Assembly: GCA_020026075.1 (NCBI GenBank)
Contig: JAHHQZ010000002.1
Coordinates: 12,567 to 76,566 of the forward strand
Source of the DNA: Actinobacillus sp.
Lineage (GTDB): Bacteria > Pseudomonadota > Gammaproteobacteria > Enterobacterales > Pasteurellaceae
DNA: 64,000 bases
Direction: 5' to 3'
Part shown: piece after piece, positions 9,374-63,045 of the stretch
Layout: each line of letters starts with the position of its first letter
How positions within the stretch are numbered: position 1 is the first letter of the stretch
Position numbers and translations under genes: made by a program
The notes under the pieces: generated by a model
Told to the model about the DNA's origin: nothing
Databases searched by the model: none
Seen by the model: the letters and a program-made list of their open reading frames with translations, nothing else

Positions 9374-9405
9374 TGTTTTCCTTAAATAAAATACCAGAGC
9401 TTTTC

Positions 9406-9878
9406 GTATTAATCCCTTTGGAACAGGGCGGTTCGTTTGAACGGTACAATTCCACAAGGGGAACTATACAACGTGGGTCTCAATCCCTTTGGTACAGGGC
9501 GGTTCGTTTGAACGGGCTAAAACATTTAGATTTCACGAAAGTAACGTAAGTCTCAATCCCTTTGGAACAGGGCGGTTCGTTTGAACACTAGTGGCATCGG
9601 CTACTTGAACGATATTCGTATGTCTCAATCCCTTTGGTACAGGGCAGTTCGTTTGAACTTCCAAACTCATTCCAAGTACCTAACGCAATCATGTCTCAAT
9701 CCCTTTGGAACAGGGCGGTTCGTTTGAACACGCACTTGAAACTTCCGATAAAAACAATCCATTAACACGTCTCAATCCCTTTGGAACAGGGCGGTTCGTT
9801 TGAACTACGGACAGCGTAGGGATGTAGATATTCAATGTCTAGTCTCAATCCCTTTGGAACAGGGCGGTTCGTTTGAAC
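9406..9878 (-). CRISPR. CRISPR array, 7 repeats of 37 nt and 6 spacers of 34-39 nt
   Basis: Repeats lie at 9406, 9477, 9550, 9622, 9693, 9769 and 9842 (each 37 nt). The plus-strand consensus is GTCTCAATCCCTTTGGAACAGGGCGGTTCGTTTGAAC. On the minus strand it ends in ATTGAGAC, a typical 8-nt crRNA 5'-tag source. The repeat at 9406 is degenerate (2 mismatches), those at 9477 and 9622 carry point variants, and the cas-proximal repeats are consensus. Confidence 0.95.
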
Positions 9879-10059
9879 AGCTTGGGGCTGAAATCGCTTG
9901 ATGAGCTTAGGCTGGCGAGTGCCAATGCCAATAAATGCTTTCGCTGAAAACGGGAGCGTCTTTTTAGTTTAAAAAACATTCGTTTGTTTACTTCTGTTTA
10001 ACATTATCTTAACAATTCACGCCATTAATGCGGTTCAAAACGGTGCGCATTATAAAATA
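9879..10059 (-). promoter_or_regulatory. Putative CRISPR leader
   Basis: 181 nt non-coding stretch between the cas2 stop and the consensus-quality first repeat. The degenerate repeat is at the opposite end of the array. Confidence 0.6.
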
Positions 10060-10338
10060 CTAGGCTGGAATAATCGACCAAAAAATGCCTTCTGGGTATA
10101 GCGGTTTACCGTAGAACGATGGTGCTTCACAGTGGTGCAGTGGGTAAATGCGCAAGTCGTCTTCTTTTAGGTTGAGTAGGCGCAATATTTTCTTTAAATA
10201 TTCCGACCAAGCCTTTTCGCTGCCCTCATATAAAAACACGCTGTACTGCAAGGCGGTGGCGAATTTACTGATTTCTCGGTGCAAACGCTGTAAACGTTTG
10301 GGGTTCGGTATGTCGTAGCCGATAAGGTAGCGTGGCAT
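10060..10338 (-). CDS. cas2: CRISPR-associated endoribonuclease Cas2 (copy A, array-proximal)
   Basis: 92 aa; MPRYLIGYDIPNPKRLQRLHREISKFATALQYSVFLYE.. shows the Cas2 ferredoxin-fold pattern. It lies directly downstream of cas1. Confidence 0.85.
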   Translation of the reverse strand: MPRYLIGYDIPNPKRLQRLHREISKFATALQYSVFLYEGSEKAWSEYLKKILRLLNLKEDDLRIYPLHHCEAPSFYGKPLYPEGIFWSIIPA

Positions 10339-10339
10339 T

Positions 10340-11386
10340 TTAAGCCTCCCAGTGAATTTGCTCGTTAAGTAGCGGTAGGGTTTCTAATGCTGGCGGTTCG
10401 CTTGGCGTAGTAAGGCAAGTGCGTGCCGTTGGGTCTCGCCGTTGTGGCAAGGCAGGCAAACCTTGTACATTTAGCTGGGTCAAAAGATGTGCCGTAAGTT
10501 TTTTCAATAAACTGCGCCAGTAAGGCATTTGTTGTTCGTAGGCGGCATAAAATTTTGCTCGTCCTGCTTTGCCGAGCAAACAGCCTTTTTCATTTTGGCT
10601 AAAATGTTCAGGCTGTAATATTTTTTGACGAAATAACCCCAACACCCAGCTGTCAACCAACGGTCGCAGAGGTTCAATTAGATCACACGCTAATGAATAG
10701 CGCCCAAAATCCACGCCGTGCAAAAAGCCGATGGCGGGGTCTAGCCCTGCGATGTAGGCATTGAGCGTGCATTCGCTGTATAGCAAGGTATAAGCGAGCG
10801 AAATGAGGGCGTTAAAAGGGTCTTTGGGCGGACGTCGGCTACGTTGGGCGAAGGCTAAACGAGGGGGCAAATAGCTACCAATGGCGGAAAAATAAGCTCT
10901 CGCCGCACTGCCTTCAATCCCTCGTAATTGAGCAAGGCTTTGGCATTGGTTGACTTGCCCTTGTGCCTGTTCAAGCTGAAAAGCCGTTCGGCGAAGTAAC
11001 GTGCTGGCTTTTTGGACGGCAAGATGGGTTATCCATTGTGTTTGAAAATATAATTTTTGAGCAATTAGCCCCTGTGCAATGTGCAGGCAAATCGTTTCAT
11101 CAAGCGATTGTGCGTATTGCGTGAGCCGTTTGGCGGCATCATTGTGGGGCGCTGGGAAGAAAATGCTCGGTTTGTGTTCTCGCCCCATTAAGGCGATAAC
11201 GCCAATATTTCGGCTCCCTAATTTGGCAAGTAAACGGCTTTCCAAACTGACATCGCCTTTTACAATCAGCCGTTCTAATGGCGCTAATGGCACGGTGGCG
11301 ATACGTTCGCCGTTTTCGTAACAAATCAGCACTTCCCCATTCAGTTTAAGTTCACATTTTTTGCGATCGATAAATAATGTAGCCAT
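10340..11386 (-). CDS. cas1: CRISPR-associated integrase Cas1
   Basis: 348 aa with Cas1 motifs: ..LRGIEGSAARAYF.., ..RRPPKDPFNALISLAYTLL.., ..DPAIGFLHG..SLACDLIEPLRPLVD. Confidence 0.95.
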   Translation of the reverse strand: MATLFIDRKKCELKLNGEVLICYENGERIATVPLAPLERLIVKGDVSLESRLLAKLGSRNIGVIALMGREHKPSIFFPAPHNDAAKRLTQYAQSLDETICLHIAQGLIAQKLYFQTQWITHLAVQKASTLLRRTAFQLEQAQGQVNQCQSLAQLRGIEGSAARAYFSAIGSYLPPRLAFAQRSRRPPKDPFNALISLAYTLLYSECTLNAYIAGLDPAIGFLHGVDFGRYSLACDLIEPLRPLVDSWVLGLFRQKILQPEHFSQNEKGCLLGKAGRAKFYAAYEQQMPYWRSLLKKLTAHLLTQLNVQGLPALPQRRDPTARTCLTTPSEPPALETLPLLNEQIHWEA

Positions 11387-11394
11387 CTTCTTCC

Positions 11395-11664
11395 CTATAT
11401 GATCATAAAAGGTAATTCCGCCAGCTTAGCTCGCCCAAAGAGTTGTGGCAACGCCGTATTTTTTAACGGAAAAATGAATAATCGGTCATCATCTTCCAGT
11501 AAACGATGTACGATCGTACGAAATCGTGCCAATTCCGCCGTTGTAAGCCAGCATTCATAAAACGATTTTTGCCCACGAATAGCGAATGCAGAGACTTTTT
11601 TATGCACCTGTCTTAGGCGTTTCGGATCAGCAATATCGTAGGCGATGAGGTATTTGTTACGCAT
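11395..11664 (-). CDS. cas2: Second Cas2-like protein (copy B, upstream of cas1)
   Basis: 89 aa; MRNKYLIAYDIADPKRLRQVHKKVSAFAIRGQKSFYECWLT...RLFIFPL has the same Cas2 pattern as copy A but is clearly divergent. Confidence 0.75.
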   Translation of the reverse strand: MRNKYLIAYDIADPKRLRQVHKKVSAFAIRGQKSFYECWLTTAELARFRTIVHRLLEDDDRLFIFPLKNTALPQLFGRAKLAELPFMII

Positions 11665-11677
11665 AATCTATACGCTA

Positions 11678-11764
11678 CTAATCATCAAGCAATGAGTTAA
11701 TTGCTTTTTGGGTTACAACAGTAGTAACAGTTACAGTCGCGCTAATTAAAAATGTTTCAAACAT
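11678..11764 (-). CDS. Candidate micro-ORF A (28 aa, Thr/Val-rich, hydrophobic)
   Basis: MFETFLISATVTVTTVVTQKAINSLLDD. A weak GGAAG SD lies 5 nt upstream and the ORF ends 13 nt before the cas2-B ATG, which has no SD of its own. It is a paralogue of micro-ORF B. Confidence 0.3.
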   Translation of the reverse strand: MFETFLISATVTVTTVVTQKAINSLLDD

Positions 11765-11809
11765 AATACTTCCATCTTATTAATCATCTGATAACTTTTC
11801 AGTAATGGT

Positions 11810-11866
11810 TTATGTGAAAACCATTACAGCTGTTGTAACAGCGGTTTTAAAAATAAGTTCAAACAT
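11810..11866 (-). CDS. Candidate micro-ORF B (18 aa)
   Basis: MFELIFKTAVTTAVMVFT with an AGGAG SD at 6-nt spacing. It shares MFE.., the T/V-rich core and flanking DNA (..TTCAAACAT..) with micro-ORF A. Confidence 0.3.
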   Translation of the reverse strand: MFELIFKTAVTTAVMVFT

Positions 11867-11904
11867 AAATTTCTCCTATTGTTAACGGTTACTTATGGGT
11901 TAAC

Positions 11905-11994
11905 CTATATCAGTATAGGCGGTAAATAAATGGGATCTTTCTCCAAAAGGTGACGTTCTGAACCATTCTTAATGATTGTCATAAAATCTTCCAT
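11905..11994 (-). CDS. Candidate micro-ORF C (29 aa)
   Basis: MEDFMTIIKNGSERHLLEKDPIYLPPILI with an AGGAG SD (12001-12005) at 6-nt spacing. It lies just downstream of a good sigma70-like promoter. Confidence 0.3.
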   Translation of the reverse strand: MEDFMTIIKNGSERHLLEKDPIYLPPILI

Positions 11995-12025
11995 TTTATT
12001 CTCCTATACTAATAAGAACTTCGGC

Positions 12026-12053
12026 ATCATTCATTTATTGAATGACTTGTCAA
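12026..12053 (-). promoter_or_regulatory. Candidate sigma70 promoter for the micro-ORF / cas2-cas1-cas2 / array unit
   Basis: On the minus strand: TTGACA (12053-12048), a 16-nt spacer, then AATGAT (12031-12026). Confidence 0.4.
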
Positions 12054-12095
12054 ACAATGCGTACATATTACTCGGTCAGTAAAAAATAGGTGAAT

Positions 12096-12111
12096 ACTGT
12101 AAATTTACAGT
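12096..12111. promoter_or_regulatory. Perfect 16-bp palindrome, candidate operator
   Basis: ACTGTAAATTTACAGT lies about 45 bp upstream of the candidate -35. It is not a LexA box: the CTGT..ACAG spacing is 6 rather than 8. Confidence 0.35.
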
Positions 12112-12251
12112 TTAGAAAACCATCAAAGTACAAATAACAAACAATAAACTCACTTTAAAAGCGTTTTTTGATTATTTCTTGATGTGGATATAGGGTTGGA
12201 TAAACGCATTTGGCAGCGGTGAATACTAGCTAAATGTGTTTATTATTGGGA

Positions 12252-13460
12252 TTAAGGTAGTATTTTATCTAATACTTTTTCTACCTGATGAGTGTCAATC
12301 GTAAGATTAGGTTCAAACATAAATTTATTGTTTTCATTCTTCTTCTCATCTGTAAATGGTAAAAACTTCATCGCATTATCAGAACTGATTTGGCACTTAT
12401 CTATAAGTTTTTCTTTGATTTTGGTTCTTGCACCATTCAAATTACTCATCAAAGTTGTTATACCTGAACTGTTTCCTTTATTATAAAGTTTTATGTATTC
12501 ATTAATTGTATCAGTCTTACCACCGAAAAAATCAACTAACTTACGAAAAGTTTCTACACTCTTCTCATAATTATCTTGTAATGCAAAATCCCAATTATTT
12601 TTTCTTGCATAGGCAATACTATACAAAAATGCATATTCCCTCGCTGACAGTTTAATTTCCACTCCATTAAATAGTACTATTCGATCTTCTGGATCATTAA
12701 GAAAGCAAATTGAAAATTTATCATCAATCCAGCTTTGTGTTTTCTTAACGGCCTCACTATAAGTTAGTTTTTGACTACAAAGCTTTTTAGGCAACCCAAT
12801 CCCTAAACGCACCCAAGGAATTTCTGCTAAAACAACTTTGGCATTTTGAGCATCAATTCTTTGACCTTTATCATTATTAATAAAATAAGAATAAGGTTTT
12901 GGATAATAGAACTCTCTTACATTTTCAAAAGTTTCATCAACCAGTACGTGAGAAAGAGTATCCTGTTTTCGTCCAAATAATGATAAAGCGTAGCCAACAA
13001 AGAATCCCATTGTCTTACGACCACCAGCAATAGAAACGTGCAAGGCAGAATCTTCATCACGGCATAATTCCCCTACTCGTTGCACAATTTGATCGGATGC
13101 GAATTGGTTTTCTTCAAGGGTACGAATATCATTTAATGGATTACCGTTGCAATCTTCAATAACTGTTATGGAGTTTTCATCAAAATGAATATGCTCAATT
13201 CCATATTGCTTACCGTAATCTTGGATAAATTGCTCAATAACATTGATCTTTTTATCTTTTCGTCCATCTACAATACCAAGTAAGCTCTCAAGTAATTTAT
13301 TTTTTCCTCGCTCGGTCGTTAATACTTGAATTTCAGTAATAGGAACATTTTTTTCTACCACTAATCCATAAAGTGTTTCTGTTACTACTGCAGGGGACAT
13401 TCCTGTTACGGTGAGTAAAATGTTTTTATTGTACGTCGTTTTCATCATTCGTTGATCCAT
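12252..13460 (-). CDS. CARF-domain protein (Cas_NE0113/TIGR02584-like) with a C-terminal OmpR/PhoB-like winged-helix domain
   Basis: N-terminus NILLTVTGMSPAVVTETLYGL...HVSIAGGRKTMGFFVGYALSL (CARF GGxKxM-type motif). C-terminus ..IKLSAREYAFLYSIAYAR...GARTKIKEKL resembles Trans_reg_C (LTxxEfxlL...hIxrLRkKL). The start may be M5 at 13448, which forms an ATGA overlap with the upstream stop. The gene is AT-rich. Confidence 0.65.
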   Translation of the reverse strand: MDQRMMKTTYNKNILLTVTGMSPAVVTETLYGLVVEKNVPITEIQVLTTERGKNKLLESLLGIVDGRKDKKINVIEQFIQDYGKQYGIEHIHFDENSITVIEDCNGNPLNDIRTLEENQFASDQIVQRVGELCRDEDSALHVSIAGGRKTMGFFVGYALSLFGRKQDTLSHVLVDETFENVREFYYPKPYSYFINNDKGQRIDAQNAKVVLAEIPWVRLGIGLPKKLCSQKLTYSEAVKKTQSWIDDKFSICFLNDPEDRIVLFNGVEIKLSAREYAFLYSIAYARKNNWDFALQDNYEKSVETFRKLVDFFGGKTDTINEYIKLYNKGNSSGITTLMSNLNGARTKIKEKLIDKCQISSDNAMKFLPFTDEKKNENNKFMFEPNLTIDTHQVEKVLDKILP

Positions 13461-14620
13461 TCTTTTAGAAGTGTTTTTAGACTTGCAAGTTGAGTTGCTT
13501 GAATAATTTTAATATTGTTATCTTTTGCACGATTCAATAAAGTTATTGGTAATTTAAAATATGAAACAAAAGCTAATTTTGTTTCTCTGCCGCAATGAGC
13601 TTTAATCGTTAACAACTTATTAATATAGTCTTTTGCATCATCTTTATTTTTAATTATACAAGCCTTACATTCAATTAAATGTAGTTTATTATTGGATAGA
13701 AATGCCACATCAACTTCATCATTCTTTCCTTGATTATCAGCACTTCTACAAGACTTTTGCTCTTGGTAATCATCACGACCTAGTTCCAAGCCACTGGCTA
13801 AATCTTGGATACCACCTTGCTCTTTATGAATTTCTTGTACAATATGGTAACAGTAATCTTCAAACCATACCCCATTTAGTAATCTCAAAACATCTCTATC
13901 TTTAAATTCTACTTTACCTTCCTTAAAGTTTATTAATCCTTCTTTATCTAAGCATTCAAATAAAGAACAAATTTCTTTTTGTTTTAGGGTGTTTTTATCG
14001 ACTTCTGCTTTAAGGCTATCTTTACAGCCCGATGCCACACCATTTAACACACGAATAAACTTTTCATTTTTTGAGTAGTTTTTAATAAAATTATTATACA
14101 AGTTAAATAAACCTTTTGAGGTGTTAGGCTTATTATCATTTAATAATTTATTACCATGTGCGGTTAAATATGCATTAAGCTTTAATTTAGAGTTTAACGT
14201 TAATGATTCAATTTTTTCTTTTTGAATCCATAATAATTGAGAATCTTGATTCAGATAGTAGAAAATATCTGATAACCCAGGAAAAACAGCATACATTGCT
14301 AAGGTCATTATTTTTGTTCCACCTGTTAGATTCACTGCTATTTTTTTATCTTCGTATTTCGTGGCTATATCAAATGCTGTATCCATTATATTTGACAGAT
14401 CATAAGCATCCTTAATATCAATAATCTCAATATTTTTGCGAGCAATCCCCTTTGTCATCAATGCATTCACAAGCCAATCAGCTTTTTTCTGCATATCCTT
14501 TGAAACTAGCAAAATAATATTTTTAGGATTAAATCTATCATCACACAACGGTAATAAATTGGGGGCAGGTTCGTGAGAAACTAAGCAAAGGTAGTAATCA
14601 AATTTTGGAAAGTTTTGCAT
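13445..14620 (-). CDS. can2: CARF plus PD-(D/E)xK nuclease effector, Can2/Card1 (DUF1887) family
   Basis: N-terminal CARF: YYLCLVSHEPAPNLLP...IAVNLTGGTKIMTLAMYAV. C-terminal nuclease motif: EVDVAFLSNNKLHLIECKA (D...ExK). I take the start at MQNFPKF (14620, AGGAG SD) rather than the tracked 14701. Confidence 0.75.
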   Translation of the reverse strand: MQNFPKFDYYLCLVSHEPAPNLLPLCDDRFNPKNIILLVSKDMQKKADWLVNALMTKGIARKNIEIIDIKDAYDLSNIMDTAFDIATKYEDKKIAVNLTGGTKIMTLAMYAVFPGLSDIFYYLNQDSQLLWIQKEKIESLTLNSKLKLNAYLTAHGNKLLNDNKPNTSKGLFNLYNNFIKNYSKNEKFIRVLNGVASGCKDSLKAEVDKNTLKQKEICSLFECLDKEGLINFKEGKVEFKDRDVLRLLNGVWFEDYCYHIVQEIHKEQGGIQDLASGLELGRDDYQEQKSCRSADNQGKNDEVDVAFLSNNKLHLIECKACIIKNKDDAKDYINKLLTIKAHCGRETKLAFVSYFKLPITLLNRAKDNNIKIIQATQLASLKTLLKEWINE

Positions 14621-14630
14621 AAAAAGCTCC

Positions 14631-14921
14631 TTATAACGCTTTAACAAAAAATGGTTGGATTTTGCAGTTTTGGGCGGTGAGTTGTTGGGTGGATAGCTCA
14701 ACTCCGCGTTGCATAAAACTGATGTTGATGGTTAAAAAGAAAAAATTAGCCCCTTTGGCACACACTTCGGCTGCTAAGTGAATAGGGAGCGTACCGATAA
14801 CGATATCCCCTGCATTTACTTGGTCAATGTCTAAATGTGCGACAAAGGTGTCAATCGCTAAATTTTGCTGTAATGCCCAGTCAATCGCACCTTGGTGACG
14901 AGAAACAAAAAATGTTGTCAT
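14631..14921 (-). CDS. csx16: Small CRISPR-associated protein, Csx16 (Cas_VVA1548) family
   Basis: 96 aa; MTTFFVSRHQGAIDWALQQ...IVIGTLPIHLAAEV. The size and N-terminal FVSRHxGAxxWA pattern match my recollection of the VVA1548 family. It has an AGGAG SD and sits between cas6 and can2. Confidence 0.6.
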   Translation of the reverse strand: MTTFFVSRHQGAIDWALQQNLAIDTFVAHLDIDQVNAGDIVIGTLPIHLAAEVCAKGANFFFLTINISFMQRGVELSTQQLTAQNCKIQPFFVKAL

Positions 14922-14972: not shown

Positions 14973-15899
14973 TTAGGCTTGTTCTGTAAATTTACATTGA
15001 TATTTTCCCAGCCCAAAGGTGGCATTTTTACCGCAATGTAGCCATTGACCGAGATACAATAACCGTTGCCACGCTGGTGAAAGCCCGTCAAATTGCCATT
15101 CACCCACAACGCCTCCGAGCGCCATTCGCTGTTTTTGACGACTGGAATATCTTGTCCAATCTTGCCAACGTAGGGTTTTCTTTTCCTGAATTTGAGCAAG
15201 TTCTGCTTTTAGTTCGGCGAAATCCAAATCCAAGGGGATTGCGTGAAATTCAGCCAACAGCGACACACGCTTAGCCAACGTGAGAAAAAAACGCTCCGCC
15301 GTTAAGGTTGTCGCTCGCAATGGTTTACCATTTTGTTGAATGCGCAATGGCGTTTCAATTTCAATGCTAACCTTGGCGGAAAGATTAGGCTTCAACGCCA
15401 CATCCGCATTTTCTAGTGGTGTTTTTGTCGCCAAAATATCCTGCCAGCCGCTGCTAGTTTGTTGTTCCAGCACACAAAGCACCGCTTGCCCTTTGCTCGC
15501 CCCAATGCGGTGAGCAAAGGCACGCTCGAATGCGTAGCAAATCAGCGGAAATTCTTTGATTAACTGCCCCACTAACACTAAGTGGAAAGTCAAAATTTCC
15601 CCTGCTTGATATTCTTGCTTACCCCAGCTTGGCGGTTCAATAATGTAGCCGTTAGGAATTTGGCTAAATTTCTGTAACGCGTGATTTTCAGGGGCTGGCG
15701 TTGTGAAAATTCGTGTAAAAGGGCAACTGCGATACAACGGGCATTCGTGGCAATCCTTGCGTTTCGTCATACAAGCCGTATGGCGCAGGGCTTGCCCAAA
15801 CGCCCCACGTAAGGTTGAGCCTGCGTAATCAGGCAGGCTAATCGGTGTGGTTACTCGAAAACTAAACCGAAAACGAGCAAAAGGTAGTGTGTCGTGCAT
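14973..15899 (-). CDS. cas6: CRISPR repeat endoribonuclease Cas6
   Basis: 308 aa RAMP with a C-terminal glycine-rich loop (..HCGKNATFGLGKY..). Its TAATG overlaps the csm5 stop. Confidence 0.8.
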   Translation of the reverse strand: MHDTLPFARFRFSFRVTTPISLPDYAGSTLRGAFGQALRHTACMTKRKDCHECPLYRSCPFTRIFTTPAPENHALQKFSQIPNGYIIEPPSWGKQEYQAGEILTFHLVLVGQLIKEFPLICYAFERAFAHRIGASKGQAVLCVLEQQTSSGWQDILATKTPLENADVALKPNLSAKVSIEIETPLRIQQNGKPLRATTLTAERFFLTLAKRVSLLAEFHAIPLDLDFAELKAELAQIQEKKTLRWQDWTRYSSRQKQRMALGGVVGEWQFDGLSPAWQRLLYLGQWLHCGKNATFGLGKYQCKFTEQA

Positions 15900-17470
15900 T
15901 AAATCCCTGCTTTTTCCTTAATTTTGTTGAGCGACTGCTTAAAGTCTTTGGCTTTATTTTTGAGCTTGCCAGCGGGCTTTTCAAAATCGGTGGCATTTGT
16001 CACTTTTTCATAAAAAATTCCAGCCTTGTCTGTTACCGCTTGATACAAGAAAGCACAATCTTCCGCCGACCAATTATCTTGCAACGTTCGTTCAATGAAA
16101 CCACAAAAGCCTTTAAAGACGATTGAATCTTCCGTTGAACGTTTTTTGTCCGCCGTTGACCAAGCGTTAAATTGTTCTTCCATTTCTTGTTGCAATGGCG
16201 AGAGTTTGCTTAGCCGTTCAGCCTCTGCTTGTTTTTCTTTGGCTTGTTTCGCCGCTTTTTCAACAAGTTCAGCCTGTCGTTGTTGAATTTCTCGCTGCTT
16301 AGCCTCTTGGAGCGCTTTTAATTGAGCAAAATCAACGCCTAGCTCAGCATTCTCTTGGCACCAAGTTTTCAATGCGGTGTTTTCACCTTGTGGATCAAGT
16401 TCAATTAACGCCCAGCCCAAAGGTTGTAGCCCTTTTGTAGAATCGGCAAACCACCACGTTGTTGGGCGTTCCTGATCGCCTGCTTTTTTTATCGCTATTT
16501 TAGCAATATCTTTTCCACGATAAATTTTGTTATCCGCCCCACATTTTCCTAAACGCACTAAGTAAGCATTCGGCATTGATTGAATTAAATTCACCAAGCT
16601 TTTCGCCCAAATCTGACGAGCGAGTCCAACCGTTTGCATTTCTTGCAACTCTTCCTTTAATAACTTAATGGAATAGTCGTGTAGGATTTTTAGCTCTTTG
16701 GCTAGGCTGGAATTTTGCGAAAAATTTTGACATTTTTTATCATCATAAATGGAAAGCTCTGCACCAAATGCTCGGTATTGGGCGGGTAAAAGGCATTCAC
16801 GGCGTATCGTTCCTTTAAAACTCCCCTCACCATTTTTGCGTTTTTTATTTTGCATATAGTAAAGCTTTGTGCCTTTATACGCCCCATTCGCCATAAAATC
16901 GCCAAAGGCTAAATGGTTATAGCGACTGGTTTGGAAACTCCCCACATACTCTTCTTTGGCTTGACTATCATCTTTTGCATAAAACGGATTATTACCTTTT
17001 TGCTGATGACAATAATCCAAATATGCCGTAACCAATGCGCCTTTCACGCTACTGGCAGGAATATAGGCTTGGTTTAGGTTTTTAGCGTAAGTGTGGCGCT
17101 CAACGTAAAGTTGATTAAAAACCTTTTCGCTACCTTGATGTTGTGCAGGTTTATCAACTTTATCCGCCCATTCGCTCGCAAAGCTCGAAGGTACAGCAAC
17201 GTAATAATCTGCAATGCCCAAATAGGCGTTACAGTATTCCTTATAAACTTTTTGGATTCTTAATAAATCTTGGCTTTTTACCGCATTATTGAGTTCAACA
17301 TATTGTTTATCGCCTTTTTCAAGCGGTAATTTGCTTGGATCAAAATGGGCAAGTACGTTTAACTTTGCATCAACGACATAATTGGTTGGTTCAAATTCTT
17401 CCCCTGCCCCAATATGAATGGGCGTAAGTGGGGTTAGCATAAGCCGATGGGTTTGTAAAAATGCGTCCAT
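15899..17470 (-). CDS. csm5: Csm5 (RAMP, Cas7-like) with a ~150-aa C-terminal extension
   Basis: N-terminus LTPLTPIHIGAGEEFEPTNYVV...SSVKGALVTAYLD is Csm5-like and the gene follows csm4. Residues from about 375 onward are a Lys/Glu/Gln-rich predicted coiled coil (LQEAKQREIQQRQAELVEKAAKQAKEKQAEAERL) plus an extra helical domain. Confidence 0.75.
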   Translation of the reverse strand: MDAFLQTHRLMLTPLTPIHIGAGEEFEPTNYVVDAKLNVLAHFDPSKLPLEKGDKQYVELNNAVKSQDLLRIQKVYKEYCNAYLGIADYYVAVPSSFASEWADKVDKPAQHQGSEKVFNQLYVERHTYAKNLNQAYIPASSVKGALVTAYLDYCHQQKGNNPFYAKDDSQAKEEYVGSFQTSRYNHLAFGDFMANGAYKGTKLYYMQNKKRKNGEGSFKGTIRRECLLPAQYRAFGAELSIYDDKKCQNFSQNSSLAKELKILHDYSIKLLKEELQEMQTVGLARQIWAKSLVNLIQSMPNAYLVRLGKCGADNKIYRGKDIAKIAIKKAGDQERPTTWWFADSTKGLQPLGWALIELDPQGENTALKTWCQENAELGVDFAQLKALQEAKQREIQQRQAELVEKAAKQAKEKQAEAERLSKLSPLQQEMEEQFNAWSTADKKRSTEDSIVFKGFCGFIERTLQDNWSAEDCAFLYQAVTDKAGIFYEKVTNATDFEKPAGKLKNKAKDFKQSLNKIKEKAGI

Positions 17471-18441
17471 TATTGTTCTCCCTTGTTAGAAGATAGCGTT
17501 GTGAAATCCACCTGCACTGGAATAACTGGTGCATAGCCTTGATGAACAATTTCTTTACCGAGCGTAGAAATATTATCCAAGCCATTCCCTACAAAATCGC
17601 GTGGTGTAAAAGCTTTTGGCGTTAGCAATGCCCCTGCTTTGGCGAGAATAATGGGCTTTTTGAACGGTTGCCCTTTTAAGGCGTAAGCATCGCCGTGTCG
17701 CCCAAAGCGTGTGATGAGCTGGTAAAAACTTTTCTCCGCCACAAAGTCATTATTCATCGGACAACAATTCGCCAATGTAATAAATGCGTTTGAAAATTCC
17801 GACCTAGGCCATTCGCCTACTGTTGCCATTTCCGTTACGGAAAATTTACCTAAACCTATACTGGCATCACGCCCATAGCCAAACGTACCAATATCTTGCA
17901 AAACCTGTTTCAACTGTTCGGCACTAAATTTGCTTTCATCAAGTAAGGCATAAATATCCAGTTGAATTTGTTGAGTTTTGGCATTTCCGTACCACGTTTG
18001 CCTTGTCATATAAGGGGCAAAGCCATCACCTGATGTGGTTGCTGTGGCACGGTTAATTTGATTATGCGCTTGTAGTTCAACGCATTGCCCAAAATCAGTA
18101 AGCTCACTATCAGCTTTTGCCAATTTCTGCCAATCGGCAAATGGCTTTTCAAGATCAGAAATCGCCAGCCATTTTTTCTTTTTCAAGGCTTTACGATCAG
18201 TCTCATCCCCTTGCGCCCATAGCAAAGAAGGCACCGTTGGCAAGGGAATATAGCCCGTTGGAAACGCATCCGATAGCACGAGAAATGGGCGGTTTTCCGT
18301 ATACGTTGCCAGCAATTCCGTCAATTTGCTTTCAGCAAAGCGATGACGAATCCCCCAGCAAACCTGCCCAAACAGCGTATCCCCCACTAATGGTGTGCCG
18401 AACGCACTTTCCAGCGTTAAGGTCATACGATACAGTTTCAT
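17470..18441 (-). CDS. csm4: Csm4 (RAMP, Cas5-like)
   Basis: 323 aa; MKLYRMTLTLESAFGTPLVGDTLFGQVCWGI...FLVLSDAFPTGYIPLP is the typical Csm4 N-terminus. Confidence 0.8.
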   Translation of the reverse strand: MKLYRMTLTLESAFGTPLVGDTLFGQVCWGIRHRFAESKLTELLATYTENRPFLVLSDAFPTGYIPLPTVPSLLWAQGDETDRKALKKKKWLAISDLEKPFADWQKLAKADSELTDFGQCVELQAHNQINRATATTSGDGFAPYMTRQTWYGNAKTQQIQLDIYALLDESKFSAEQLKQVLQDIGTFGYGRDASIGLGKFSVTEMATVGEWPRSEFSNAFITLANCCPMNNDFVAEKSFYQLITRFGRHGDAYALKGQPFKKPIILAKAGALLTPKAFTPRDFVGNGLDNISTLGKEIVHQGYAPVIPVQVDFTTLSSNKGEQ

Positions 18442-18453
18442 AACGCCCCCTTA

Positions 18454-19149
18454 TTATGCGAATGGATCAATAGTATCCAGCACTACGGTTGTTTGATCCT
18501 TTTTGAGATTCTCAAATTTGATTTTGCCATAACCACGAGATCCTGAACCGCCGAGGCTATCCAATTCAAGCAAGCGTAAACCTTTTAAGAACGTATCCAC
18601 TAATGCAGGATCATCACCTTCAAACTGGCGTAAAGTAACTTTGAAATTAAATTTCACACCTGCTGGCACACGCTCAATTTGGCGAGGGTGAGCGGCTGTT
18701 GCAGTAATGCGGTTAATGGTATTTTCACTTTTCGCCTCGGATAACAACAAAATGTCTTCGTTCGCTTTGTTTTTCCATTCTTCGGTTAATTGGCAATCCC
18801 AAAATGCTAAGCGAGTCGCCCAAAAATTTTGATCGCTATCCGCTAGGCTGCTATCACCGCTTACGCCGAATAATTGCAAAATCTGTTTCACCATTAGGTT
18901 ATGCTCATTTTTTTTCCAGTCTGTTAGGCTTAACGGCTGTTCTTTAACCGCACCACTGCGCCATTCCAATAAGCTACGAATTTTGCCCTTTAAGCTAGAA
19001 CCAGGGATGTAAGGGTGATGGGTAATTGGATTTTTCACCACTTGGCTGTCAATGCCGCCAATGTGCATTTCGCTGTCGCCTGTACCAATATGTAAGCCAC
19101 TTTCTAAGGTAATAACGCCTGTGATTTCGATAATTTTATTAAGTTTCAT
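18454..19149 (-). CDS. csm3: Csm3 (Cas7 backbone subunit)
   Basis: ..ITGVITLESGLHIGTG...IPGSSLKGKIRSLLEW.. is a canonical Csm3 motif. I take the start at MKLNKII (19149, AGGAG SD), because the tracked 19182 start overlaps csm2. Confidence 0.85.
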   Translation of the reverse strand: MKLNKIIEITGVITLESGLHIGTGDSEMHIGGIDSQVVKNPITHHPYIPGSSLKGKIRSLLEWRSGAVKEQPLSLTDWKKNEHNLMVKQILQLFGVSGDSSLADSDQNFWATRLAFWDCQLTEEWKNKANEDILLLSEAKSENTINRITATAAHPRQIERVPAGVKFNFKVTLRQFEGDDPALVDTFLKGLRLLELDSLGGSGSRGYGKIKFENLKKDQTTVVLDTIDPFA

Positions 19150-19165
19150 TGTTTGCTCCTTGTGC

Positions 19166-19561
19166 TTATTTTTTAGCTTCATAGTATTTGCAGTAACCCA
19201 TCACGGCCTCCATAAAAAGTTTTGCCATTTTGAGCGTTTTTACATCCTTGATTTGATCAATCACTCCATTAAAAATCTCTGTAAATTTTTCATTTACTAA
19301 CTTGCGAGCCTCTGCATAAGCCACTTTAGCTTTTAACATTTTGATGTAGATCTCGTTATCTTTGTAACTTTTATCAGAATCCGAACTTGTCGTAATTTTG
19401 TCGTGCCACATCACCAACTCATCATAAAACTTACGTAATTGTGTTGATTTATTGACGTTTTCTCCGCCACTGCGAATGTCATATGCGGCATTGTCTGCAA
19501 TATCTGAAAATAATTCAGGCTGTGGATCGGTAAATCTAATGTCGTTTGAATTAAAGCTCAT
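19166..19561 (-). CDS. csm2: Csm2 (type III-A small subunit, Cas11)
   Basis: 131 aa, helical; ..STQLRKFYDELV...LFMEAVMGYCKYY is a Csm2-like pattern. It sits between cas10 and csm3. Confidence 0.75.
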   Translation of the reverse strand: MSFNSNDIRFTDPQPELFSDIADNAAYDIRSGGENVNKSTQLRKFYDELVMWHDKITTSSDSDKSYKDNEIYIKMLKAKVAYAEARKLVNEKFTEIFNGVIDQIKDVKTLKMAKLFMEAVMGYCKYYEAKK

Positions 19562-19570
19562 AATGACCTC

Positions 19571-21829
19571 TTAACGTTGTTGATAGAAATAGTTAAATAA
19601 TGGAATTTTAAACTGCTGGTTATACTTGCCTATGCCCTTATCGCCGAGCGATACAGCCAGCTCTTCTAAGGCTTTGGAACGTTTATCCTTCGGTAGTTTA
19701 TCCGTCACATAACATGTCGTTTTATAGTAAAACTGCGAACGCCACACCATTGGCGAATAATTTCCTTTACTGATAGTTTGCGGTTGGCTTGCCAAATAGG
19801 CTTGATCCGCTAAGTGAATTAAGGCATATAAATAAGCGGTCGACAGTGAATATTCATTATTTAAATCTTGAATTTTACGCTGCAAATCGCCTAAATTTTT
19901 CCAAATATTCCAGCCTACGGAAATGCCATAAATATTCACGGCGTTTTTGCTGATGTTTTTTCCGTCCGCTTTAAACGCTTTGGCTTTTTCCAGTGCATTT
20001 TCCGCAATTTCACCTAGCTGGGTAACGGGATAACCGACTTTTGTCATAACCATTCCAGCGGAAAAATGAATATCGCTGTTCTTTGCCACATATTCTGCAA
20101 ACTTTTTGTGCATTTCATCAGCAACTTTTTGTGTTTTAAGCCAGCTACCAATTAAGAAGAAATCATCGCCGCCAGCGAATACGGTATACACTTGCGCTTG
20201 GTTGGATAAGCAATAGCACGGCAACCATAAGCTGAAAAATTGATTCATTTTGCGAGAAAGCATTGCAATTTTGGCAAAGCTGGCTTTCTCAACGCCTTTT
20301 TCAAAGATTTTGCCTAGATTGTCGACGTCCCCTTTGAGGGTCATTAACGCCGATTGCCCTTGATAATTCTTATCTGTCGATAGGGTTCGATCTTCACACG
20401 CGAGAAAATCAAAGGTTTTAATTGCATCTTTGGCCTCTTCCTTTATATTTTCTATATCTTCTCTCTTACAATTCTCATATTTACCTAGCTCAAATTCATT
20501 CATTTCCTTCTCACAATTAGGGCTAAAACGAGCCACATAGGCGTTAATATCTCGTCTGGCGTAGCCTTGGAAAATTGGCGTGTCCATTTGTGCTGGAATG
20601 CTAATATCCCAAATGTAATCCGCTTGATTGAGCATTTTTTCTTCATTATTCTTAGAACCAAAAGCCACATAAAAACCAAAAATTGGTAAATCTAAGCAGT
20701 GAGATACGCTAGGTTTGTGGGTAAAAATCCCCAAAAAACTATCTTTTGTCAGCCATTGACCAATGTTAACTTGATCCTGCGAAAGCGTAGATAAGCCCTC
20801 TTTTTTCGCTGGGAAATGGCTATTTAACGCACAACAACCTTGCGAGAAATCCACATCCTGCACGATGTTTTGTCGCTGGGTTAAATTCAAACGTTGCAAT
20901 TTCACGCGTTCTAAATCCTTAAAGCGAGCATTTTGCAATTCCGTTAATTGTTCACCTTTTAAATCCTGTTCATCCGCAGGCACAACACCAATGCCAATTC
21001 CAGCTAGTCCGTAGGTATTTTGAACAAACCATTCATCAAAATCTTGTTTAATTTGAGCTAATTTATCCAATGTATCTTGCGTATTGGGTGCAATAATCAA
21101 AAACTTACCTGCCGCATTTTGTACTTGGCTAATGCTTGGCAAGCCTAGTTCTCGTAAAATTTTTAAGCCTGCCAATTCGGTAAACAGCGACACTTGGAAA
21201 GAACGCCCACGCAGTAATTTCGCAGCTTTTTTATTCGTTTCACTACCGCCTGAAAAGATAAAATCCTGAATGCCAAAGAAATCCCCTGAAATCAATGCAT
21301 AAGTTTTTTTGCCCTTTTTATCGCAAGCCTCGTCATATAAATGTTTTGCGATAGTAAACGCCGTTTTAGTGCGAGCCTCATCATACAAACTCACATCGCT
21401 GGCATTCGGATCCGCCACGTGGCTTAAATAGCCCTGCATTGCACTATCAAAAGCCGCCAAATAACGGTAATGATCTTTTTTAAATTCCTGTGGAATGCGG
21501 TCTAATGCCGAAATGAACGCTCGTTGTAAATCCTGCCAGCGCCCTTCAATACCTTTTTGGGGTTTAGGAAAAATACTATTCGCCGTTACGGGCTGAAAAT
21601 CATAAACATAGCTTTCCCCTTTATCAGCGTTGTTCCCAAAATGAATATGGGAAAACAAACTGTCCAGCGGTTTAGGCTCTGATACGGTTTCAACGGGCTT
21701 GGTTAATAGTGTAAAAGGGAGTTTTTCTTGCAGTGCGGTAAGATTTTCTTTGCTAAATAGCGCAGAGAAATCCTCCGTTAAGGCTTGCAATGCCTTGCTT
21801 GAAAGGGATTGAAGTGAATGTTGTTCCAT
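19571..21829 (-). CDS. cas10: Cas10/Csm1 large subunit; cyclase GGDD motif present, no recognisable N-terminal HD motif
   Basis: 752 aa. Has ..ALISGDFFGIQDFIF.. (Palm1-like) and ..VFAGGDDFFLIGSW.. (the GGDD codons are at 20162-20173). The first ~175 aa contain no H..HD signature. Confidence 0.9.
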   Translation of the reverse strand: MEQHSLQSLSSKALQALTEDFSALFSKENLTALQEKLPFTLLTKPVETVSEPKPLDSLFSHIHFGNNADKGESYVYDFQPVTANSIFPKPQKGIEGRWQDLQRAFISALDRIPQEFKKDHYRYLAAFDSAMQGYLSHVADPNASDVSLYDEARTKTAFTIAKHLYDEACDKKGKKTYALISGDFFGIQDFIFSGGSETNKKAAKLLRGRSFQVSLFTELAGLKILRELGLPSISQVQNAAGKFLIIAPNTQDTLDKLAQIKQDFDEWFVQNTYGLAGIGIGVVPADEQDLKGEQLTELQNARFKDLERVKLQRLNLTQRQNIVQDVDFSQGCCALNSHFPAKKEGLSTLSQDQVNIGQWLTKDSFLGIFTHKPSVSHCLDLPIFGFYVAFGSKNNEEKMLNQADYIWDISIPAQMDTPIFQGYARRDINAYVARFSPNCEKEMNEFELGKYENCKREDIENIKEEAKDAIKTFDFLACEDRTLSTDKNYQGQSALMTLKGDVDNLGKIFEKGVEKASFAKIAMLSRKMNQFFSLWLPCYCLSNQAQVYTVFAGGDDFFLIGSWLKTQKVADEMHKKFAEYVAKNSDIHFSAGMVMTKVGYPVTQLGEIAENALEKAKAFKADGKNISKNAVNIYGISVGWNIWKNLGDLQRKIQDLNNEYSLSTAYLYALIHLADQAYLASQPQTISKGNYSPMVWRSQFYYKTTCYVTDKLPKDKRSKALEELAVSLGDKGIGKYNQQFKIPLFNYFYQQR

Positions 21830-21861: not shown

Positions 21862-21890
21862 ACAAAATTTAGTAAAAAATTCCAGCCTAG
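21862..21890. repeat. Truncated palindromic element (centre plus right arm) at the aspS-proximal edge of the CRISPR island
   Basis: ACAAAATTTAGTAAAAAATTCCAGCCTAG; there is no left arm upstream. Confidence 0.65.
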
Positions 21891-21909: not shown

Positions 21910-21935
21910 TAAAAAAGCCGAGCATTGCTCGGCTA
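21910..21935 (-). terminator. aspS rho-independent terminator
   Basis: On the minus strand: AGCCGAGC-AAT-GCTCGGCT followed by TTTTTTA. Confidence 0.7.
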
Positions 21936-21946
21936 GTTTTGTAAAT

Positions 21947-23713
21947 TTACAGTTTTTCCACAACCCCAATGGCTAACTCGTTAAGCGCCTGTGGGTTGGC
22001 TTTGCTTGGTGCGTCTGTCATTAAGCACGCCGCGGCGGTGGTTTTTGGAAATGCAATGACATCACGAATGTTGGTAGTGTCGGTTAAGAGCATTGTTAGG
22101 CGGTCTAAACCGAAGGCTAGCCCTGCGTGTGGCGGGGTGCCGTATTTGAGTGCGTCAAGTAAGAAACCGAATTTTTCACGCTGTTCTTGTTCGTTGATGC
22201 CAAGAATGCGGAACACGGTTTCTTGCATTTTGCCTTCGTAAATACGCACGGAGCCGCCGCCCACTTCGTAGCCGTTAATGACCATATCGTAAGCGTTTGC
22301 GACCGCTTGTAATGGCTCTTCTTCTAGCTGTGCTGGGGTGAGATCTTTCGGTGAGGTGAACGGATGGTGCATTGCACTTAAATGGCCGTCATCGTCCAAT
22401 TCAAACATTGGGAAGTCCACAACCCATAATGGTTTCCACGCTTTTAAGTTGGTTAAACCTAAGTCGGTTCCCACTTTTAAGCGTAATGCGCCCATTGCGT
22501 CTGTGGCGATTTTGGCGGTGTCTGCGCCGAAGAATACAATGTCGCCGTCTTTGGCATCAAGGCGAGCGAGCAAGCTTTCTAGCACGCTGTCGTTAAGGAA
22601 TTTAGCGATTGGACTTTGTACGCCGTCCATTCCTGCGGCACGGTTATTTACTTTCAACCACGCTAAACCTTTCGCACCGTAAATGCCCACAAATTTGCCG
22701 TATTCGTCAATATTTTTGCGAGTTAAACTTGCCCCTTGCGGAACGCATAAGGCGATAACACGACCGTTTGGATCATTGGCAGGGCCGCTGAATACTTTGA
22801 AATCTACGTCTTTGACTAAGTCTGCCACGTCCACTAATTCAAGTGGGTTACGCAAATCAGGCTTATCAGAACCGTAACGGCGCATTGCCTCAGCGAAAGT
22901 CATTTGTGGGAATTTACCAAGATCCACGCCGAGAATGGCTTTCCATAAGCCGTGAATCATTTCTTCCATAATGGCACGCACTTCTGGTGCGGTTAAGAAA
23001 CTGGTTTCCACATCGATTTGGGTAAATTCAGGCTGGCGATCTGCACGTAAATCTTCATCACGGAAACATTTTACAATTTGATAATAACGGTCAAAACCAG
23101 ACATCATTAAAAGCTGTTTGAAAAGCTGTGGGGATTGTGGCAAGGCGTAAAATTTGCCTTTATGCACACGGCTTGGCACAAGGTAATCACGCGCGCCTTC
23201 TGGGGTCGCTTTGGTGAGCATTGGCGTTTCCATATCCAAAAAGCCGTGTTCGTCCATAAAACGGCGTACAAAGCTGGTGATTTTGGCACGAGTTTTGAAA
23301 CGCTCTGCAATTTCAGGACGGCGTAAATCTAAATAACGATATTTTAAGCGCTGTTCTTCGGTGTTGTTTTGATTGAAATCCAACGGCAACACATCAGCAG
23401 CGTTATAAATGTGCAATGCTTTCGCCAACACTTCCACTTCGCCTGTTTTCATATTTTTGTTGATTTGATTCTCAGGGCGAGCGATCACTTCCCCTTGCAC
23501 TTGAATACAAAATTCATTGCGCAAGCTCGCTGCTTTATCAAGTGCCTCTTTATATTGCGGAGCGAAGGTAACCTGTACGATACCTTCACGATCACGCATA
23601 TCGATAAAAATTACCCCCCCTAAATCACGGCGGCGATGTACCCACCCGCTTAATGTTACAGTTTCCCCAATGTTTGAGCGGTTTAAATCGCCGCAATACT
23701 GTGTTCGCATCAT
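21947..23713 (-). CDS. aspS: Aspartate--tRNA ligase
   Basis: 588 aa with full-length class IIb aaRS similarity ([10 protein letters not shown]..., ..[18 protein letters not shown].., ..GGGSVRI..). Confidence 0.95.
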
Positions 23714-23831: not shown

Positions 23832-23877
23832 CTAGGCTGGAATTTTTGTCAAAATTTTGTGAAAAATCCCGGCCTTG
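23832..23877. repeat. Palindromic intergenic element, long form
   Basis: CTAGGCTGGAAT-TTTTGTCAAAATTTTGTGAAAA-ATCCCGGCCTTG; it ends 2 nt from the lipA stop. Confidence 0.85.
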
Positions 23878-62912: not shown

Positions 62913-62940
62913 ATTCCAGCCTAACTATTTAGGCTGGAAT
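62913..62940. repeat. Arm-to-arm junction of the palindromic element (right arm then left arm) forming a tight hairpin plus a T7 run
   Basis: ATTCCAGCCTAA-CTAT-TTAGGCTGGAAT followed by TTTTTTT. Confidence 0.75.
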
Positions 62941-63045
62941 TTTTTTGAAAATTTTACTTGATTTTTAGAAAACTAGGCTTATTTAGGTAGTCTCCATTGT
63001 TTTTTATCCAAAAAAACACGAGTTTATAACCTAAAAGGGGTAATT

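Follow-up and report, generated by a model that had tools for sequence, protein, structure and literature searches.

The subject of this analysis is NE0113, a protein encoded at the end of a three-gene block in a complete type III-A CRISPR locus on the minus strand of a 64-kb window of Actinobacillus sp. DNA (the whole stretch analysed; all coordinates are window positions). The block, csx16-can2-ne0113, directly follows cas6, and three gene boundaries of the locus carry copies of a short palindrome, TGTAAATTTACA, that is probably the binding site of NE0113. An earlier model-made reading of these letters, hereafter the sequence-only reading, had described three tightly packed minus-strand genes after cas6, and the open reading frames (ORFs), their spacing and their overlap all bear this out: 51 bp separate the end of cas6 (14973) from csx16, 10 bp lie between csx16 and can2, and the can2 TGA (13447-13445) and the ne0113 ATG (13448-13446) form an ATGA overlap. 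Every peptide motif that it quoted (NLTGGTKIM, DVAF...LIECK, SPAVVTETLY, AGGRKTMGF, LSAREYAFL and ARTKIKEKL) was found in the translations. The block comprises the following features.

12252-14921, minus strand: block of csx16, can2 and ne0113
14631-14921, minus strand: csx16, 96 amino acids, stand-alone, with an AGGAG site before the ATG
13445-14620, minus strand: can2, 391 amino acids from an ATG behind an AAGGAG site (the mechanical ORF from an upstream TTG has 418)
12252-13448, minus strand: ne0113 (NE0113/TIGR02584 gene), 398 amino acids; alternatively 12252-13460, 402 amino acids from an upstream ATG
12729-13448, minus strand: N-terminal CARF domain of NE0113, residues 1 to about 240 of 398
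12252-12728, minus strand: C-terminal domain of NE0113, residues about 241-398 and the stop codon, probably a divergent OmpR/PhoB-like winged helix with an extra helix

The NE0113 protein and its two domains

The third protein had been read as carrying an NE0113-type CARF domain, and this is confirmed both by profiles (TIGR02584, 1e-65 and 221.7 bits against an equivalog cut-off of 80.65; PF09623, 1.7e-41 and 142.8 bits against a cut-off of 23) and by matches of fold. The full-length AlphaFold model, built on 46 homologues, has a pLDDT of 84.9 and exceeds 90 across most of the CARF domain. In Foldseek, this domain matches Crn1 Sis0455 (1.8e-4), the CARF of Cad1 (2.8e-4), Cam1 (7.6e-4) and Sso2081 (1.3e-3), with a weak match also to Thermus thermophilus Csm6 via its CARF domain; the nearest structures are CARFs that bind cyclic tetra-adenylate (cA4). 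At the sequence level, neither the whole protein nor a Pasteurellaceae profile retrieved anything meaningful from the PDB; only a profile of diverse C-termini, described below, reached OmpR domains. The CARF clade was read from the PADLOC models, which are named after numbered clades: the best models are CARF5--CARF_TM (3.9e-106) and CARF5--CARF (3e-102), and CARF_m13 matches at 2.9e-7 over residues 11-49 only. The clade label is accordingly CARF5, of the "CARF" only kind with no recognised effector domain. The family occurs in the genomes of at least 570 species, and the current NCBI name of TIGR02584 is "CRISPR-associated ring nuclease Csm6".

Two short motifs in the CARF domain, G16-M17-S18 and G143-R144-K145, are invariant in the 46 homologues. 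Their counterparts in Sso2081 are motif-I (G9-T10-S11) and motif-II (G104-R105-K106), which were proposed as the signature that tells CARF domains able to degrade cyclic oligoadenylate (cOA) from those that are not (PMC10018336). The presence of both motifs makes a slow intrinsic cA4 ring nuclease activity of the NE0113 CARF likely.

The C-terminal domain is approximately 150 amino acids long, a length that stays constant in at least 570 species, and NE0113 is the only protein of the window locus with a putative DNA-binding-type domain. No Pfam family, RelE/ParE families and Trans_reg_C (PF00486) included, matches the C-terminal domain in any of 75 family members. A profile built from 75 diverse family C-termini matches DNA-binding domains in the PDB, namely those of RstA (1.2e-5), KdpE (2e-3), ArlR (4e-3) and PhoB (1.7e-2), and hhalign aligns the NE0113 C-terminus with the PhoB DNA-binding domain at 76% probability over 36 columns that span the beta-platform and alpha1. 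The stand-alone AlphaFold model of the domain (pLDDT 86.4, pTM 0.84) has the OmpR order of elements (beta-platform, alpha1, helix-turn-helix and C-terminal hairpin wing) plus one extra helix, and its Foldseek list consists almost wholly of OmpR-family domains, with target TM-scores of 0.5-0.56 and weak E-values (0.26 or higher). The OmpR/PhoB-type winged helix that had been proposed for this C-terminus is thus moderately well supported by the family profile, the hhalign alignment and the Foldseek list of the stand-alone model. Relatives of the domain are scarce: a word-indexed search returned one protein with the profile and none with the window domain, and an exhaustive phmmer search gave only multi-stretch matches in long proteins that look compositional.

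Two other identities for NE0113 were considered and rejected. A canonical Csm6/Csx1 protein (CARF-HEPN) is contradicted by the absence of a HEPN domain in Pfam, NCBIfam and PADLOC and of any conserved Arg or His in the C-terminal half of 46 homologues. Cami1 (CARF, winged helix-turn-helix (wHTH) and RelE) was considered since related "Csm6" CARFs are fused to RelE; no RelE/ParE domain was detected at E <= 1 among the 75 C-termini, the C-terminal model is helical with short hairpins only and has no RelE beta-sheet, and the A. vinosum homologue also lacks RelE. The sequence-only reading had placed the block "in place of Csm6", which holds by position only, there being no HEPN domain. It had also called the CARF-OmpR-like fusion uncharacterised. 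No experimental study of the NE0113 family was found in the literature searched, but a role in transcription had been predicted: the family has long been catalogued, and Makarova et al. noted in 2014 that NE0113 proteins, like Csa3, have no effector domain and predicted them to be transcription regulators (PMC4012209). Phage-encoded NE0113 homologues were looked for and none were found.

Palindromes at gene boundaries

The sequence CTGTAAATTTACAG stands in the gap that separates ne0113 from cas2. The exact 12-bp palindrome TGTAAATTTACA is present in three copies in the 64 kb, against 0.01 expected from shuffles, and all three lie inside the CRISPR locus, at gene boundaries.

21940-21951, no strand (palindrome): site 1, TGTAAATTTACA, 111 bp upstream of the cas10 ATG and overlapping the aspS stop codon (CTG TAA)
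14985-14996, no strand (palindrome): site 2, TGTAAATTTACA, inside the last cas6 codons, 64 bp upstream of the csx16 ATG
12098-12109, no strand (palindrome): site 3, TGTAAATTTACA within the 16-bp palindrome ACTGTAAATTTACAGT, 143 bp past the ne0113 stop and 434 bp upstream of cas2

No further site appears at up to one mismatch, the other 54 kb of the window included, and the flanks of the three copies are unlike, the palindrome alone being shared. A global regulator was rejected as the source of the palindrome on the same grounds, together with the count of two-mismatch matches in the 64 kb (9 against 8 expected). Site 2 is the candidate operator of the csx16-can2-ne0113 operon. Site 3 lies 45 bp upstream of a sigma-70-like element, TTGACA-16-AATGAT (12053-12026, minus strand), which is the best promoter-like match on that strand in the locus (10/12). 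Site 1 is immediately followed by a terminator-like hairpin of aspS (21916-21934); the CRISPR locus, at its left edge, borders directly on the end of this housekeeping gene or has reshaped it.

Nine Pasteurellaceae-type loci were compared with the window: those of A. segnis, an Actinobacillus metagenome-assembled genome, Testudinibacter, M. succiniciproducens, P. multocida, an H. haemolyticus-like contig, A. equuli, M. haemolytica and C. haemoglobinophilus. Their chromosomal surroundings differ from locus to locus, and gene order is the same in the six (L081-L086) for which gene lists are fully resolved. At the places where the window has TGTAAATTTACA, these loci carry a different palindrome, TACAAATTTGTA. 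In eight of the nine loci it overlaps the stop codon of cas6, at 70-92 bp upstream of csx16. Upstream of cas10 it is found at 74-75 bp in L001, L083 and L085, at 135 bp in L086 and at 27 bp from the called start in L002, and a copy follows the ne0113 stop by 27-180 bp in L001, L002, L081, L083, L085 and L086. Some of the loci have TACAAATTTGTA upstream of cas2 as well.

The pattern extends to 75 more distant proteobacterial loci, where the analogous palindromes are GCAAGCTTGC, ACAAATTTGT, GCAAATTTGC and GCAACGTTGC. Over a set of 84 loci of varied proteobacterial origin, about 1.2 Mb in all, there are 84 copies of GCAAGCTTGC, with about 1 expected, and 32 of ACAAATTTGT. The plasmid locus of A. 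vinosum contains ACAAGCTTGT three times, once 29 bp after the NE0113 gene. Of 85 loci, 38 have such a palindrome in the roughly 200 bp ahead of the ne0113 start, compared with 1.9% of control windows from the same loci, and it is most often placed about 75-80 bp before the ATG. Further copies stand ahead of cas10, cas6, csx16, cas2 and RAMP genes, and half of the unlabelled ORFs directly downstream of a site (10/20) are of the RAMP family. NE0113 is the only gene common to all comparison loci, by construction. A companion effector is always present, either Can2 (in Pasteurellaceae and some beta-proteobacteria) or a Csx1-type CARF-HEPN protein elsewhere, which suits NE0113 as a regulator or an off-switch better than as an effector.

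The window also differs from its relatives in the protein. Compared with the nine Pasteurellaceae homologues, its NE0113 is 63% identical in the CARF domain and 21% in the C-terminal domain, and the operator differs; among themselves the nine are 73% and 41% identical, respectively, and share an operator. Testudinibacter (L003), the most divergent of the nine, has CARF identities of 64-68% and C-terminal identities of 29-42% to the other eight and retains the shared operator. In the window, the C-terminus and the putative operator have thus diverged together, which fits co-evolution; this is one event and not a statistic. A covariation trend between the recognition helix and the operator was suggestive only and confounded by phylogeny, and it was left unused.

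Csx16, Can2 and the remainder of the locus

The first two genes of the block are readily placed. The 96-amino-acid product of csx16 spans the profile models of its family end to end and scores far above the curated cut-offs (PF09652, 1.7e-29 and 102.3 bits against 25; TIGR02620, 3.7e-33 and 113.6 bits against 46.35; PADLOC Csx16 model, 6e-39), in agreement with its earlier description as Csx16(VVA1548)-like. The gene lies between cas6 and can2, immediately before the latter, in a type III locus with an effector of a cA4-dependent family. The sequence-only reading had described Csx16 as a proposed ring nuclease family, and a family representative has since been demonstrated biochemically to be a cA4-specific ring nuclease (PMC12409355); the window Csx16 is a predicted cA4 ring nuclease, that is, an off-switch. 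Elsewhere Csx16 is found fused to effectors, as in one Can2 entry with Cas_VVA1548 and DUF1887 (supplement of PMC11229360) and in the PADLOC models CARF_HEPN_CSX16 and CARF_CSX16_TM (PDLC01842, PDLC01940), and such fusions fit a built-in off-switch role.

Both domains of the second protein, named as CARF and PD-(D/E)xK by the sequence-only reading, are matched above cut-off (PF23400 CARF_Card1, 4.6e-19, 69 bits against 24.6, residues 11-151; PF09002 Card1_endonuc, 1e-16, 61 bits against 26.4, residues 242-389), and PADLOC assigns CARF4--CARF_PDDEXK (2.5e-94). Alignments to solved structures run over the whole length for VC1899 (1xmx, 5.9e-21) and Can2 (7bdv, 8.7e-21), and Card1 is matched at 1.6e-13. 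The catalytic D...E-x-K residues are in register (EVDVAF...LHLIECK vs ELDVVF...LHVIECK of the solved Can2), as is the GGTK motif (NLTGGTKIM vs NVTGGTKIM), and the protein is a predicted cA4-activated effector nuclease of the PD-(D/E)xK type. By inspection of the sequence, motif-I G-x-S (the criterion of PMC10018336) is absent at its first strand. Can1-2 effectors are reported to have no intrinsic ring nuclease, and a ring nuclease accompanies 66% of Can1-2 loci (PMC12409355); Pasteurellaceae Can2 orthologues already appear in published III-A effector tables (supplement of PMC11229360). Neither Csx16 nor Can2 stands out from its characterised family, and their pairing is known and common.

The two CARF genes had been noted as more AT-rich than the csm genes, which had suggested a separately acquired module. 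The low GC contents are real (can2 0.298, ne0113 0.326, csx16 0.416, cas10 to cas6 0.419, cas2-cas1-cas2 0.470), but separate acquisition is unsupported. The csx16-can2-ne0113 order is kept across Pasteurellaceae genera and recurs in some beta-proteobacteria; can2 is low in GC in every relative (0.27-0.35) and csx16 in none; and ne0113 is low only in the window, chiefly in its diverged C-terminal half (0.287). Because the order is conserved, can2 is AT-rich everywhere and ne0113 only here, composition does not show a recent separate acquisition.

The rest of the locus is arranged as follows.

14973-21829, minus strand: cas10-csm2-csm3-csm4-csm5-cas6, the type III-A effector operon and signal-making part
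19571-21829, minus strand: cas10
19166-19561, minus strand: csm2
18454-19182, minus strand: csm3
17470-18441, minus strand: csm4
15899-17470, minus strand: csm5
14973-15899, minus strand: cas6
11665-12251, minus strand: AT-rich variable gap between ne0113 and cas2, 587 bp, GC 0.31, holding site 3, the promoter-like match and three short ORFs
10060-11664, minus strand: cas2-cas1-cas2 adaptation genes (PF09827, PF01867, PF09827)
about 9405-9879, minus strand: CRISPR array of seven repeats, 37-nt repeat ending ATTGAGAC (tandem repeat period 73)

Relatives of this locus are typed III-A in the supplement of PMC11229360. Cas10 matches TIGR02578 (Cas10/Csm1) at 5.3e-146, and the Pfam palm2 and Csm1_B domains are matched, with the GGDD cyclase motif present as AGGDD. 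No Pfam match to an HD domain was obtained, and the alignment to the Csm1 model begins only at model position 91. Since its Cas10 has no HD domain, defence by this locus probably depends on signalling. Csm5 is long (523 amino acids), and the Csm5 model covers residues 11-177 only; the C-terminal part contains a Lys/Glu/Gln-rich, coiled-coil-like stretch, and the Csm5 proteins of relatives are of similar length (510-516 amino acids). The two Cas2 proteins that surround cas1 (10060-11664) are distinct, being 33% identical to each other, and the cas2-cas1-cas2 order recurs in the fully annotated L081-L086, in several beta-proteobacterial loci and, judged by homology hits, in L001-L003.

The gap between ne0113 and cas2 contains three short ORFs, each with a good ribosome-binding site and all downstream of site 3 and the promoter-like match: 11905-11994 (29 amino acids), 11810-11866 (18 amino acids, MFELIFKTAVTTAVMVFT) and 11678-11764 (28 amino acids, MFETFLISATVTVTTVVTQKAINSLLDD). 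The 18- and 28-residue products are hydrophobic and similar to each other, and no counterparts of the three were found in related loci. In relatives the gap measures 0.45-4.5 kb and varies in content. The C. haemoglobinophilus locus (L086) has a tandem repeat of about 318 bp in six copies at 11293-12885, each copy with TACAAATTTGCA, and the gaps of A. segnis, P. multocida and A. equuli (L001, L082 and L084) contain repeated units that resemble a second CRISPR array. The slot after site 3 is occupied in several relatives by an ORF of 119-150 amino acids (L001 14398-14757; L003 11312-11692; L085 11284-11643; L082 11255-11707). Those of L001, L003 and L085 share "..RA(Y/F)NGR(Y/C)FIK(N/D)GKKWIHN..", the L082 ORF has 150 amino acids, and none of the L003, L085 and L082 products has a Pfam match. 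Such an ORF might have left a remnant in the 29-residue gap ORF of the window (..IIKNGSERHLL..).

No Rfam family was detected in the window. A 14-mer, AGGCTGGAATTTTT, occurs 13 times at up to one mismatch (0.09 expected), on both strands and both inside and between genes (for example at 16013-16026, 21875-21888, 23834-23847, 28435-28448 and 62931-62944), and looks like a genome-wide uptake-signal-like or REP-like word (REP, repetitive extragenic palindromic); known Pasteurellaceae uptake sequences are not enriched in the window, so that the host is probably no typical representative of this family.

A proposed regulatory circuit and its relation to known systems

A palindrome that is confined to its locus, varies by lineage and stands ahead of the regulator's own operon and other cas operons is typical of an autoregulated dimeric DNA-binding protein encoded in that locus. 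This, taken with the CARF and putative winged-helix domains, leads us to regard NE0113 as, somewhat more probably than otherwise, a cA4-sensing and probably self-resetting transcription regulator of its own locus and the candidate binder of TGTAAATTTACA. We infer cA4 as the messenger from the known specificities of the Can2 and Csx16 families, and we likewise infer DNA binding by NE0113, the direction of regulation and the ring nuclease activity. In the proposed scheme, csx16-can2-ne0113 would serve an HD-less type III-A (Csm) system as its operon for cA4 output and control. Recognition of target RNA would cause the GGDD cyclase of Cas10 to make cA4, which would switch on the Can2 dimer to cut nucleic acid, and Csx16 would degrade cA4 and so reset the system. 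Binding of cA4 in the CARF pocket of an NE0113 dimer would alter the engagement of its winged helices with the 12-16-bp palindromes. Transcription of the cas10 operon and of the csx16-can2-ne0113 operon itself would then change, as would that of whatever follows site 3, which in the window is the three short ORFs, cas2-cas1-cas2 and the array. Slow cleavage of cA4 at the G-x-S/G-R-K site of NE0113 would end the response. The distances of 75-120 bp between site and start codon would allow either activation or relief of repression by cA4. The sequence-only reading had proposed a circuit of effector nuclease, off-switch and cOA-sensing transcription factor; the locus-specific palindromes strengthen that proposal, but its division into Csx16 as off-switch and NE0113 as sensor is probably too neat, because the NE0113 CARF itself has ring nuclease motifs.

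Several observations weigh against a regulatory role of this kind. The statistics for the winged helix are moderate (profile 1e-5, Foldseek 0.26 or higher, hhalign over the first 36 columns, no Pfam match), and 12 bp is short for a palindrome that should accommodate two winged helices. In the window, site 1 precedes the aspS terminator and has no obvious cas10 promoter beside it, and the position of site 3 is tied more closely to the 3' end of ne0113 than to the start of cas2. All comparison loci were selected for encoding NE0113, and many of them are related; they collapse into 18 clusters at 60% identity, and a site precedes ne0113 in only 6 of these. The residues of the recognition helix did not covary cleanly with the type of operator. 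Csx16 already supplies the locus with a ring nuclease, and in one study Csa3a, an archaeal CARF protein with a winged helix, bound its own palindrome non-specifically in vitro (PMC8699464).

The presence of ring nuclease motifs raises the alternative that NE0113 is merely a second ring nuclease, in which the winged helix is auto-inhibitory or structural, as in the long Crn1 proteins Sso1393 and Sis0811, and the palindromes belong to another factor or have a different role. The invariant G-x-S and G-R-K, the Crn1 enzymes at the top of the Foldseek matches and the NCBIfam name "CRISPR-associated ring nuclease Csm6" all speak for this, as do the far better conservation of the CARF domain relative to the C-terminus and the precedent of Sis0811, the wHTH of which is reported to be auto-inhibitory and has no demonstrated role on DNA. 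It is nevertheless difficult to reconcile with a locus that already encodes Csx16, since two ring nucleases occur in only about 4% of ring nuclease loci, and it leaves unexplained why an OmpR-like domain of approximately 150 residues should have retained its length across at least 570 species, in the sole locus protein with a DNA-binding-type domain, while locus-specific palindromes precede the gene or operon of NE0113 in many lineages. We consider this alternative unlikely.

The palindromes could instead owe nothing to NE0113 and mark cassette junctions used in recombination or module shuffling, or act as elements at the RNA level. Sites 2 and 3 exactly flank the AT-rich three-gene block, site 3 follows ne0113 at a near-constant distance and borders the highly variable gap (with its 318-bp, six-copy array in L086), and the accessory genes vary by locus between Can2 and Csx1, all of which would suit junctions. 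However, sites recur about 75 bp upstream of both cas10 and ne0113 despite quite different gene orders, no recombinase is conserved in the loci, what is conserved is a short palindrome and no longer repeat, and the unit that moves between genomes is the whole locus and not the block; as RNA, the 12-mer would form a stem of only 4 bp, rich in A and U. We judge an origin of this sort very improbable. Finally, CARF proteins are usually effectors, and Makarova et al. (2014) noted that a wHTH in a CARF protein need not mean control of transcription (PMC4012209), so that NE0113 could be a cA4-activated effector that acts on DNA generally, as a roadblock or nucleoid binder. Against this stand the lack of any detectable catalytic or toxic domain, the classical effector that always co-occurs and the confinement of the palindromes to the locus (no other match in the window at up to one mismatch), and we would give such a role hardly any weight.

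A broader proposal, on which we are evenly divided, is that the NE0113 family is the bacterial counterpart of Csa3, comprising cA4-gated, self-resetting transcription factors that bind YAA-NN-TTR palindromes (GCAAGCTTGC, ACAAATTTGT and, in the window, GTAAATTTAC). Hundreds of type III loci in Proteobacteria would carry such palindromes in front of the cas10 operon, in front of the operon of the factor itself, and ahead of either the adaptation genes or a variable slot for cargo. How bacterial type III systems tune their own expression around cOA signalling is largely unexplored; Csa3 of archaea is the only cOA-responsive transcription factor characterised, and putative regulators were left out of recent surveys of ring nucleases and type III effectors (PMC11229360). 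What is new here is the analysis of the ring nuclease motifs together with the conserved locus-specific palindromes, which make a formerly vague prediction testable: the hypothesis names a binding site with exact coordinates, three conserved promoter-proximal placements and two catalytic motifs. If it is true, type III immunity would gain a transcriptional feedback arm, in which the strength and duration of the signal are linked to expression of cas, effector and adaptation genes with a built-in timer. The joint change of operator and winged helix in the window would then be a natural specificity switch, and the family would offer small, orthogonal pairs of cA4-responsive regulators and operators.

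Among known systems, the combinations of Can2/Card1 with Csx16 account for the first two genes of the block, which are straightforward members and differ in nothing of note. NE0113 resembles Cami1 and Csm6 in its N-terminal CARF, its length of about 380-400 amino acids, its place at the end of a type III operon and its database name "Csm6"; it differs from them in having neither RelE/ParE nor the HEPN R-x4-6-H motif, and no Cami1 chain is among its top 50 Foldseek matches. Crn1 provides the best structural match to the CARF domain (7z55, 7ygh), has motif-I and motif-II, and carries a C-terminal wHTH in its long forms, Sso1393 and Sis0811. Unlike Crn1, which is typically crenarchaeal (PMC12409355), NE0113 falls in CARF5 with the Cad1 CARF and not in CARF7/CARF_m13, has no sequence match to the Crn1 chains in the PDB, is roughly twice as long as the solved chains (184-188 residues) and has a C-terminal domain of a different type.

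The closest parallel in design is with the archaeal Csa3a and Csa3b. These combine a CARF sensor with a C-terminal winged helix, as NE0113 apparently does; like NE0113, they have no enzymatic effector domain and are associated with CRISPR-locus-specific palindromes. Csa3 binds cA4 and regulates adaptation and interference genes, and the palindrome CAPPa (CRISPR-associated promoter palindrome), restricted to CRISPR-cas promoters and leaders, is its proposed operator (PMC8699464). The differences are nonetheless considerable. The Csa3 model TIGR01884 (cas_HTH/Csa3) has no match to NE0113 and only a weak one to Can2, and the NE0113 winged helix appears to be of the OmpR/PhoB type, with an N-terminal beta-platform and an extra helix. 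Csa3a has no catalytic lysine and no ring nuclease activity, whereas NE0113 has G-x-S and G-R-K; Csa3 belongs to archaeal type I-A systems and the NE0113 locus is bacterial type III-A; and the candidate operator of NE0113, YAA-NN-TTR in 10-16 bp, contrasts with the TCCC-N8-GGGA of Csa3. We therefore liken NE0113 to Csa3 in its apparent architecture and its palindromes, and not in family membership.

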